42,950 nucleotides of DNA, from the IMG/VR virus record IMGVR_UViG_2778261513_000004; one strand, written 5' to 3'. The DNA comes from a virus. Taxonomy: Duplodnaviria > Heunggongvirae > Uroviricota > Caudoviricetes. Positions 3,001 through 6,000 of this stretch are shown here, piece by piece. A program made the position numbers. Within the stretch, counting starts at the first letter, position 1. Each line of letters starts with the position of its first letter.

Positions 3001-6000
3001 CCTGGCTTTTGCTTCGCTAAGTTGCTTTTGCTGCTCTGTCAGGCGATTAAAAGCTGTTCCGACAGGATCGAGTTGAGCAATCAGACGTTGCAAAGCAGCA
3101 ACCTGTTCATCATGCGCTTTTGCTGCTTCTCGTTCTGCCTGAGCCTCTCCTGTTAGCTCTCGCCGCGTTTCCTGTATTTTTCGGCTGTAATTATCAAACT
3201 GAGAGCCATTTATTTTCCCGGATGAAAGTGCTGCATTAAGTTCATCCTGCTGTTGGTCAAGATTTCTTAGCGCCGCGGCCAGAGGGTCGATCTTGTCCAG
3301 CATTCTTTGAAAGGCCTGAGCCTGCGCTTCCTGCTGGGCAGCAGCAAGTTTTCCGGCCTTCGCGGCTTCTCTCTGCGCTTGCGCAACCCCGCTCAATTCC
3401 GCTGTAGTTTCATTAAGTTTACGGGCAAGAAATTTATATTCTTCTTTATCAATAAGCCCTTTGCCGAAATATTTCTTTAATTCAGAATAGCGTCGACCGA
3501 CAGTATCAATTGCGGCACCTACAGGATCAATAGCTGCCTTTAATTTTGCGAGCGCGTTCTTCTCATCTTCTGTTGCCCTGGTCACTTTCCCTGCGCTATT
3601 TGCAGCAGTTTCTCCGGCCTGCGTCATTTTGACCAGGGAGGAGGTCAGATTGTCAGCATTATTTTTCGCTCCAGTGCTATCAATAATTATTGCAAGACGC
3701 GAAGTTTGCTCTGTCATTTAGTTACTCCGGACAAATAAAAAGCCCCGCTTGATAAGCGGGGCCAGACAACAGAGGAAAGGAAATTATCAGAAACGATAAC
3801 CAATACCGGTCATCCAAGTACCTACTTTCACATCGCCCAATTTGGTGTACTCATAGGATGCGTCAACTACCCAATTTGGTACAGGATTAAACTGAATACC
3901 AGCACCATATACAACCGAAGTCTTGCTTGAAGAGTCAGAGTATCCCAGAATCGTCGCTTCAGCACGTCCATGCGCTACACCTAATAAGCCATATGCACTG
4001 AAGTAATCATTGAAACGATAGGCTGGACCGGCAGCTAGTGAATAGTAATCCAGTTCTCCATTTCCAATTTTAGAGCCTGCAAAATAATAATCGTATTCTT
4101 GATTTGTGTACGTAAATGAAGATGCAACGCCCCATTTATCATCCAGCTCATAGCGATACTTAATATTTACCCCTGAAGGATTCTCATCAAGGCTTTCTCC
4201 ACCGGCTTTAACATGGCTTTGGGCATAACCAAGAGAAATAGTATTCTGCTTCAATTCAGCATTTGCAATGCCAGTTGCAAACAAGGCTGAAGCGATAATG
4301 GTAGTCAACACTGCTTTTTTCATAAAATCACCGTCATTTCACAAATCATTGTTATAACAGCCAGAATTAATCTGGCTGGCAGCATTAAAATATCCACCAC
4401 ATTCGATAGTCAACTATCAATCTCTCATCAAACTATATGTGTGCACATTGTAATTCAGACAATTACTAAAAAATATTAAATTAATTAATCAATATCCCAT
4501 CAACAGTTTTGGATTGAGAAACATACTGATCATCCAGCGCAAAGATCACTGCTTCAAATTCATCACTATCTATCAATATTGGGTGTGCTTTTAAGTAGTC
4601 GTGCACGTCAGATATTGATAAAGGCAGCGGAACCCCGGACATGCCCGCATAACGCCTGGAACGAGACATTACTGAGTACGCATACAATAACTCACGGACA
4701 ACGGGGTCTATTTCTGGCTCCGGTATCGGTGGCAACCTGAGTTTTTCTCTCGTCCACCTTGCCTTTTCCCCCTTTTCGCCCCCGAACTCCGATAACCACC
4801 GCTGGGCGGCTATGGCTTTTTTATCGTATCCTGCTTCTGCTGCTCTTTTCCCTGGGCGATGCTGGCGGCTTCAGCAAGAATTTGCCAGTACAACTCTGGA
4901 TTCTGCTTGAGCAGCGTGGCCCCTCGCTCTGGTGTATATTCCAGCGCGACCTCAACCCCATCCACCAGTTCACCAACCCCTTTCCAGTCTTTCAGTAAAT
5001 AACGAGCGGCGTTATCAATAAGTAAATCATCAACAGAATCCACCTCGTCGACCTTTGCAATATCAAATTCTTTCGTTCCGACATGCAAACTGGCATCCAT
5101 TTTCTCTATGTGACGACGGATTAATGCATTACGGGAGCGATACTGATCGTTATCGCTGCTTGCCACCAACAGTTTTAACCCATCTACAGGTTTTAAGTCC
5201 TTCATTGGCGTAAACCAGCGTTCTCCACCGATGATAATTTTCTGATTAAGAATAAACATCCATAACCTCATTCAAAACGTCCCTGTAGTGCAACACCACA
5301 GGGGAAATAACGGAAAATCAACTAATCGCCTCAGCACTGGCTTTTGCGATCACGGCAGCCGGAGAGGCTTTTTTTCTGGTTATCGTAGGCGCTTCATCTG
5401 CTGCGGTAATACTCAGTTGAACCTGGATAATGTCGGTATTACCACCGTCAGGCCATTCACCTGACACCTGAACCTTCGGAAAACTGAAAGTGTATGCCCC
5501 CTCTCCATTCGAAAGCGTGAAGCTGAACGGAACTGTTTCTCCAGTCAGTGTTTTACTCCAGATTTCCCACGCAGCTTTAGACCATGAAAGCGTCACCGTA
5601 CCGGACGGTGTAAAGGTAGTAGGAATATTTGCTCCTGCATAAGGCGAGCCAGTCCCGATACAACGCTGAGTCTGGAGTTTGTTATCGAACTGAATATCAA
5701 AACTGTCGATACAAAAACCGTTACCTCCGGCAACACCATTCAGGCTTACTGCTGAAACCTCTTTAAACGAATAACGTAGCTCTCCTGCGCTATCCACAGG
5801 TTCGCCTGTGATAAAATTCGTATCATCGGCCTTTGATTCCCAGTCCAGCCCGGCAAAGGTTACGGTCGCCGTAATATCACCATCGTTAGGGATCTGCATT
5901 TTCCATGACCCCACCTGCGCTCCTCTGATGACAGAGGCAATTCCGACATCGGACGCATAGGTCGCCAGAGAAAATGTTATTCGCTCATTTCCCATTGTCA

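Follow-up and report, generated by a model that had tools for sequence, protein, structure and literature searches.

The 42,950-nt stretch of viral DNA analysed here (IMG/VR record IMGVR_UViG_2778261513_000004; the whole of it is called the window below) is an Escherichia coli prophage of the Rac group. Its minus strand, on which the genes named G, T, lom and tape measure all lie, carries a candidate programmed -1 ribosomal frameshift site near the 3' end of a G-like tail assembly chaperone open reading frame (ORF). In the ORF listing this zero frame runs 5271..4810 from an ATG at 5271, which is the mechanical ORF start and stands 12 nt 5' of a second ATG at 5259. Because a GAGG resembling a Shine-Dalgarno (SD) element can be read in the sequence 6 nt 5' of ATG 5259 (5266..5269, minus strand), and because the G homologues begin at the equivalent residue, ATG 5259 is the likelier start of the two. 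On that basis G would occupy 4810..5259 (minus strand) and encode a protein of 149 amino acids (MFILNQ...DTIKKP), with its stop codon, TAG, at 4812..4810. A preliminary description of this locus, made from the sequence of the window, had given its extent as 4481-5271, which is correct as to where the ORF opens and probably incorrect as to where translation begins.

The 3' end of G reads GAT ACG ATA AAA AAG CCA TAG (...DTIKKP*), and thus includes the slippery heptamer A_AAA_AAG (4816..4822, minus strand), the proposed -1 shift site, in the X_XXY_YYZ phase of the G frame and one codon ahead of the stop. The first A of the heptamer (4822) falls at the third position of ATA, as a tandem -1 slip requires, and the codon read after such a slip would be GCC (4816..4814), from which the -1 frame continues as AIAAQRWLSEFGG...GILIN to a TAA at 4483..4481. 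The resulting T segment (4481..4816, minus strand; AIAAQRWLSEFGGEKGEKARW...DGILIN) has 111 codons, which translate as AIAAQRWLSEFGGEKGEKARWTREKLRLPPIPEPE...DGILIN, and it extends 109 codons past the zero-frame TAG. The -1 frame is already open 5' of the heptamer and stays open down to 4484, and the earliest start-type codon (ATG, GTG or TTG) in the T frame is a TTG at 4735, which is codon 28. The predicted GT fusion is therefore a protein of 259 amino acids (148 G residues plus 111 T residues) with the junction ...DTIKK/AIAAQ..., and its predicted junction peptide is ...QDTIKKAIAAQR. The position of the heptamer in the last codons of G, the length of the open -1 frame (put at about 110 codons) and the residues at the junction all agree with the preliminary description, the last of these exactly.

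Taken by itself, the occurrence of this heptamer is within chance expectation, since AAAAAAG is found 19 times over both strands of the window and, among its stop-to-stop ORFs, the 84 with 100 or more codons contain 81 in-phase X_XXY_YYZ heptamers in which Y is A or T. In the same set of ORFs, any other heptamer whose -1 frame goes on for more than 100 codons beyond the stop seems, judging from the coordinates, to be in a shadow ORF that overlaps a larger ORF. It is the comparative evidence that places the site far beyond chance, namely the retention of the heptamer, the retention of the T protein, and a switch of reading frame both in nucleotide diversity and in the ratio of nonsynonymous (pN) to synonymous (pS) differences.

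The loci compared were 82 from E. coli and viral sequences and 16 from contigs representing one genome per species, and 38 distinct junction sequences were analysed. An in-phase A_AAA_AAG is present at the homologous position in 82 of the 82 E. coli and viral loci, and the zero-frame stop in these loci is variable, lying 10, 28, 82 or 112 nt downstream. Fourteen of the 16 species-level loci have a canonical heptamer, which is an in-phase A_AAA_AAG in nine and an in-phase G_GGA_AAG in five. In the latter five (Raoultella, Serratia, Pantoea and Tatumella), G_GGA_AAG stands at exactly the position of A_AAA_AAG, where it changes the encoded VKK to VGK, and columns 4-7 of the heptamer are invariant over the 38 distinct junction sequences. 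The fact that a canonical heptamer is kept though its identity changes argues for selection on slipperiness and not on the encoded lysines.

The T segment is likewise conserved as a protein from the first codon after the heptamer, and its 27 distinct variants all start A[ILV][AET]AQ[RK]W. Across the 38 distinct junctions, diversity in the 60 nt before the heptamer is highest at codon position 3 of frame 0 (7.7 versus 2.5 and 1.7 at the other two positions), and in the 95 nt after the heptamer it is highest at position 3 of frame -1 (14.4 versus 8.0 and 6.4). When the first 28 codons after the heptamer were compared between the window and Citrobacter-type loci, the -1 frame showed an amino acid identity of 0.68-0.79, pS of 0.9-1.0, pN of about 0.2 and no stop codons, whereas the other two frames showed an identity of 0.25-0.39, pN equal to or greater than pS, and stop codons. 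The pN/pS ratio over these codons is about 0.2 in the -1 frame and low in that frame only, so this segment is under purifying selection in the -1 frame and in no other. A tblastn search with the GT fusion matched every related phage as two pieces, down to phages of Pseudomonas and Acinetobacter at about 31% identity; T was in the -1 frame wherever the frames were checked among related phages, and the two-frame arrangement of G and T recurs in six other genera and in isolated phages. Conservation of the -1 frame in homologues, on which the preliminary description had made its proposal depend, is thus borne out.

These patterns bear directly on a model without recoding, in which G and T are separate genes and T is initiated internally, either at TTG 4735 or at ATGs further downstream that have been chosen by gene callers. 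A separate short T ORF has indeed been annotated in relatives by gene callers and depositors, the ORF listing of the window gives an 84-amino-acid ORF that starts at TTG 4735, and PHROG 1189, a family of unknown function that T alone matches (E 5e-31), spans only T residues 29-103. However, the 27 codons that separate the heptamer from the earliest potential start (AIAAQRWLSEFGGEK...) are kept as -1-frame protein with the pN/pS of about 0.2 given above, and they are free of stops in that frame in all relatives, which is not true of the other frames. In addition, the switch in periodicity maps onto the heptamer itself, no SD element lies at a usable spacing before TTG 4735, and the separate-gene model gives no reason for a conserved in-phase heptamer or for the replacement of one canonical heptamer by another. 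We consider internal initiation of an independent T gene to be very unlikely.

The order of genes around the pair is tail terminator, tail tube, G, T, lom (where present) and tape measure. The tail tube (major tail) protein gene (5318..6280, minus strand) matches Pfam PF18906 Phage_tube_2 (E 4.7e-32) and PHROG 290 and lies directly upstream of G, and the gene that precedes it is the tail terminator. The gene for the tail length tape measure protein (484..3717, minus strand; 1077 amino acids) matches Pfam TMP_2 (E 5.8e-81), Tape_meas_lam_C (1.5e-25) and PHROG 24. G and T are therefore positioned between the tube and tape-measure genes, as the G/GT class of chaperones requires, and the tail genes around them are intact in the window. 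In relatives that lack lom, about 160 nt separate T from the tape-measure gene that follows.

Membership of a chaperone family was indicated by profile searches, in which the PHROG labels are annotations and not tested functions. G alone matches PHROG 313, 'tail assembly chaperone', with E 1.4e-46 over profile positions 15-149, and the conceptual GT fusion matches the same family with E 4.2e-51 over positions 20-248 of 258, so this profile evidently includes full-length GT proteins; the fusion also matches PHROG 8233, which is likewise labelled 'tail assembly chaperone'. The relationship to these families is one of direct sequence membership for G and GT, and differs for the T part alone, which falls in PHROG 1189. 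Scans of G, T and GT against a local copy of Pfam-A and against NCBIfam returned zero matches. Every G homologue has been assigned the precomputed Pfam accession PF27119, which the local copy of Pfam-A lacks; a recent Pfam family apparently already covers the G chaperone.

The frameshift that joins G and T in phage lambda was reportedly the subject of work by Levin, Hendrix and Casjens in 1993 and by Xu, Hendrix and Duda in 2004, 2013 and 2014. By architecture, position and shift site, the pair in the window is a member of the G/GT class of Xu, Hendrix and Duda (2004), as it combines the expected gene position with an overlapping -1 frame that has no start at its conserved 5' end, an in-phase canonical heptamer, and conservation of both the site and the -1-frame protein. 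The earlier assignment to a conserved chaperone frameshift of the G/GT type is therefore upheld by synteny, by PHROG 313, by a heptamer kept throughout the E. coli and viral loci, and by selection that changes frame at the junction.

In lambda, gpG and the frameshift product gpGT are made at a ratio of about 30:1; the tape measure protein is a binding partner of both, and the major tail protein one of the T part (PMC5009743). Although its sequences have little similarity, the G/GT arrangement is kept widely among long-tailed phages, and in E. coli high shiftiness is a property of A_AAA_AAG and likewise of G_GGA_AAG (PMC5009743). The window resembles lambda in that the pair lies between the major tail protein and tape-measure genes, T is in the -1 frame without a start of its own, G is about 140-150 amino acids long, a canonical heptamer lies in the same phase a few codons ahead of the G stop, and the presumed function is the same; moreover, distant members of the window's family use lambda's own heptamer, G_GGA_AAG. 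It differs from lambda in its heptamer, A_AAA_AAG, in the length of T (111 codons, versus roughly 145 for the lambda -1 segment), in a tail tube partner that belongs to another family (Phage_tube_2), and in the separation of T from the tape-measure gene by lom and a terminator, whereas lambda T overlaps H.

From the observed anatomy, family match, synteny, conservation of the shift site and switch of the selected frame, it is very probable that in this Rac-like E. coli prophage, a siphovirus, G and T form the tail assembly chaperone pair and that they are expressed through programmed -1 ribosomal frameshifting. The slippage and its efficiency we infer to be as follows. Most ribosomes would make the 149-residue G protein and terminate at the TAG, and a minority would slip by -1 with the AAA and AAG lysine codons of 4822..4816 in the P and A sites, where the single E. 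coli tRNA-Lys would re-pair with AAA-AAA and reading would restart at GCC 4816 to yield the 259-residue GT fusion. By analogy with lambda, G and the G part of GT may coat the tape measure protein while the T part recruits the tail tube protein; a fixed low ratio of GT to G, set by the rate of slippage, would be needed for correct tail assembly, and neither protein would be expected to remain in the virion. Mass spectrometry of virions, which the preliminary description had offered as a test of the fusion and as a means of refuting it, is for this purpose misdirected: mature lambda virions contain neither gpG nor gpGT (PMC5009743), and the proper material for seeking the fusion peptide is an induced lysate or an intermediate of tail assembly.

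The E. coli dnaX gene, which encodes the gamma and tau proteins, provides a second point of reference, since it uses the identical A_AAA_AAG and the same single tRNA-Lys (PMC5009743). It differs in that about 50% of ribosomes shift, aided by an SD-like element upstream and a stem-loop downstream, and in that its shifted frame ends after one codon; the shifted frame of the window adds 111 codons, and low efficiency is expected. A stimulated cassette of the dnaX type has an SD-like element about 10-14 nt upstream of the heptamer and, 5-9 nt past it, a conserved stem-loop or pseudoknot, and the A_AAA_AAG site of the window has neither. This site seems to function with no conserved RNA stimulator downstream of it.

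Several observations weigh against the proposal that G and T are joined by programmed ribosomal frameshifting, or against parts of it. A downstream stimulatory structure, for which the preliminary description had recommended a search, was sought and none is conserved: RNAalifold applied to 14 diverse junctions gave -0.81 kcal/mol and 3 pairs, and in single-sequence folding the window's own hairpin has an unremarkable energy (a z of -0.46 over 56 nt and of -1.90 over 116 nt). That hairpin starts at +1 after the heptamer, and it would therefore be melted inside the ribosome. No SD-like element occurs at the spacing found in dnaX, the closest candidate being an AGGA whose end is 6 nt upstream and which Gln-Asp/Glu codons account for. 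Since there is neither a conserved structure nor an SD-like element at the dnaX spacing, the efficiency of slippage is not predictable. Three relatives depart from the canonical site: Pectobacterium odoriferum (locus L094, about 2919-2925) has G_GGG_AAG, which is not canonical, Erwinia phage Gungnir39 (L101, about 1986-1995) has C_GCA_AAG followed directly by TAA, and Pseudomonas phage Aurca01 (L099, about 1900-1956) has no in-phase heptamer, with a GGGAAAG one base out of phase. It is possible that such relatives use weaker or non-canonical shift sites, or that they are defective.

Sequence similarity to lambda proteins was also undetectable, as a profile of 28 G sequences gave an hhalign probability of 0.1% against lambda gpG, and a comparison with lambda GT gave a BLASTP E of 38. 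A profile search of Protein Data Bank (PDB) sequences for G returned 0 matches, and an AlphaFold2 model of G, built from a 28-sequence alignment of close homologues, was unusable (mean pLDDT 45, pTM 0.31). Because no similarity in sequence was detected, either to lambda gpG or GT or to any solved structure, the link to lambda is one of architecture, position and the PHROG label, and not of demonstrated homology; nevertheless, this result does not argue against the mechanism, as sequences of the G/GT class are reported to diverge strongly. Finally, the GT fusion protein of this chaperone family is a prediction from sequence.

Two other explanations for the overlapping frames can be considered. 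In the first, RNA polymerase would slip on the A-run, so that some mRNAs would be one A shorter and would encode GT in a single frame. There is a run of six A at the site, and transcriptional slippage on A or T runs is known in bacteria, but the reviewed bacterial cases involve runs of about 9 A or T (PMC5009743), longer than the six present here. In addition, the G_GGA_AAG of distant relatives has three A only and allows tRNAs to slip in tandem but does not allow the polymerase to do so; a single mechanism shared by the whole family is therefore ribosomal, and transcriptional slippage is more improbable still than internal initiation of T. Least credible of all is the view that a once-continuous GT ORF was broken by a frameshift mutation in a defective prophage, or by a homopolymer sequencing error, because even though cryptic prophages are among the members of the Rac-like group, in which the window element falls, and some database proteins are in-frame or otherwise shifted G-T fusions (P0001, P0002 and P0003), the two-frame arrangement is found (by DNA similarity) in 1071 of 5426 complete E. 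coli genomes, over 27 distinct T variants, in the other genera and in isolated phages, with purifying selection on both frames and intact tail genes in the window.

One of these database proteins, P0001 (240 amino acids, from E. coli NB16F79), is a continuous-frame G-T protein in which ...ILAEA is joined to GYDKKAIAAQ..., apparently through a short deletion. Other continuous G-T fusion proteins come from Logan assemblies and resemble the products of homopolymer or indel errors. A prophage that encoded the fusion without G would be expected to be tail-defective if the system is lambda-like.

A second in-phase heptamer, G_GGA_AAA (4846..4852, minus strand), lies 30 nt 5' of A_AAA_AAG at a point where the -1 frame is already open, and a slip there (4852..4846) would yield a GT isoform with the linker ...AQGK/RAAEAGYDKK-AIAAQ. 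This heptamer is found in only some relatives, for which reason it is judged to be probably incidental. It has been considered that the locus might have two usable shift sites into one -1 frame, G_GGA_AAA and A_AAA_AAG, giving two GT isoforms that differ by a 10-residue linker and a GT:G ratio that is raised or tuned, or, separately, that the lom moron and its own terminator might uncouple expression of the chaperones from that of the tape measure. We hold these suggestions to be unlikely, and if true, either would be a small variation on a known theme.

The Ail/Lom outer-membrane protein moron itself (3787..4323, minus strand; Pfam PF06316, E 2.9e-27; PHROG 108) lies between T and the tape-measure gene. 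Its start at 4323 is 157 nt past the T stop, in keeping with the earlier statement that the -1 frame ends just before a lom-like moron. The lom region is AT-rich, with a GC content of 0.31-0.43 versus about 0.5 in the flanks, and lom is absent from the position between T and the tape-measure gene in phage vB_EcoS-683R6 and in most relatives. The C-terminal residues of T differ in the lineage that carries lom, being ...YVSQSKTVDGILIN there versus ...YFQEQCV elsewhere, and so mark the boundary of the insertion. After lom and before the start of the tape-measure gene there is a terminator-like hairpin with a T-run (3741..3763, minus strand), which has 10 pairs, 7 of them G-C, and is followed by TTTTATTTGT. 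A promoter scan of the minus strand upstream of lom found no sigma-70-like promoter. In the distant phages Aurca01 (Pseudomonas; positions 2250-3560 of the extracted locus) and Acba_11 (Acinetobacter; 2190-3470), several small genes, on both strands and some of them regulator-like, follow the chaperone pair, and those of Aurca01 precede a large unnamed ORF at the position expected of a tape-measure gene. The site after the chaperone pair may be a recurrent hotspot for insertion.

A 1.1-kb region containing the locus is 100% identical to several complete E. coli genomes, and 1071 of the 5426 complete genomes of this species have related sequence. In related phage records the G gene is called 'putative protein YdaY', and the ydaY gene (b1366) of the Rac prophage of E. 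coli K-12 is a 5'-truncated orthologue of G that has the same ...DTIKKP* ending and the same A_AAA_AAG. The K-12 locus (NC_000913.3, about 1425621-1426288; L103, 622-1289) also has an intact, unannotated T frame of 104 codons after ydaY. It differs from the window in that the upstream part of G and most of the tail genes have been deleted, whereas the window has a full-length G in a complete-looking tail module, and because of these deletions the shift site in K-12 is regarded as a relic. The junction of the K-12 deletion, between ydaY and the ParB-like ynaK, is also seen as fusion proteins in databases (P0063). A search of the papers available to the analysis for ydaY together with frameshifting found nothing relevant.

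Existing annotation of these loci does not capture the fusion, as had been anticipated in the preliminary description for automated gene callers. At a 100%-identical locus (NZ_CP076272.1; L001, 3232-3591), the RefSeq pipeline PGAP has called a 119-amino-acid 'hypothetical protein' that starts 30 codons late and has no T, and this protein is of the same length as the K-12 ydaY product. GenBank phage records have two separate ORFs called for G and T, and the RefSeq record of lambda likewise lists G and T as separate coding sequences. In all records of the window's family that were checked, the product is named 'hypothetical protein' or 'YdaY', G is truncated or T is missing, and there is no ribosomal_slippage join. 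The feature is an ordinary, textbook G/GT frameshift that is unannotated in RefSeq and GenBank for this chaperone family.

The value of recognizing it lies mainly in annotation, since roughly one in five complete E. coli genomes has the family, and a name and function can be given both to ydaY of the K-12 Rac prophage and to the unannotated ORF that follows it. The locus also offers a clean comparative case of one position occupied by either of two canonical heptamers and, for frameshift predictors such as PRFect (PMC10885494), an A_AAA_AAG site that has no stimulator; our understanding of tail assembly or of recoding is unchanged by it. Elsewhere in the window there are no tRNA genes, and searches with Rfam identified two RNAs above the gathering score, both on the minus strand: the RalA small RNA, which is the antitoxin of the Rac toxin RalR (41216-41394, 197 bits), and a sok antisense RNA (25035-25210, 105 bits).

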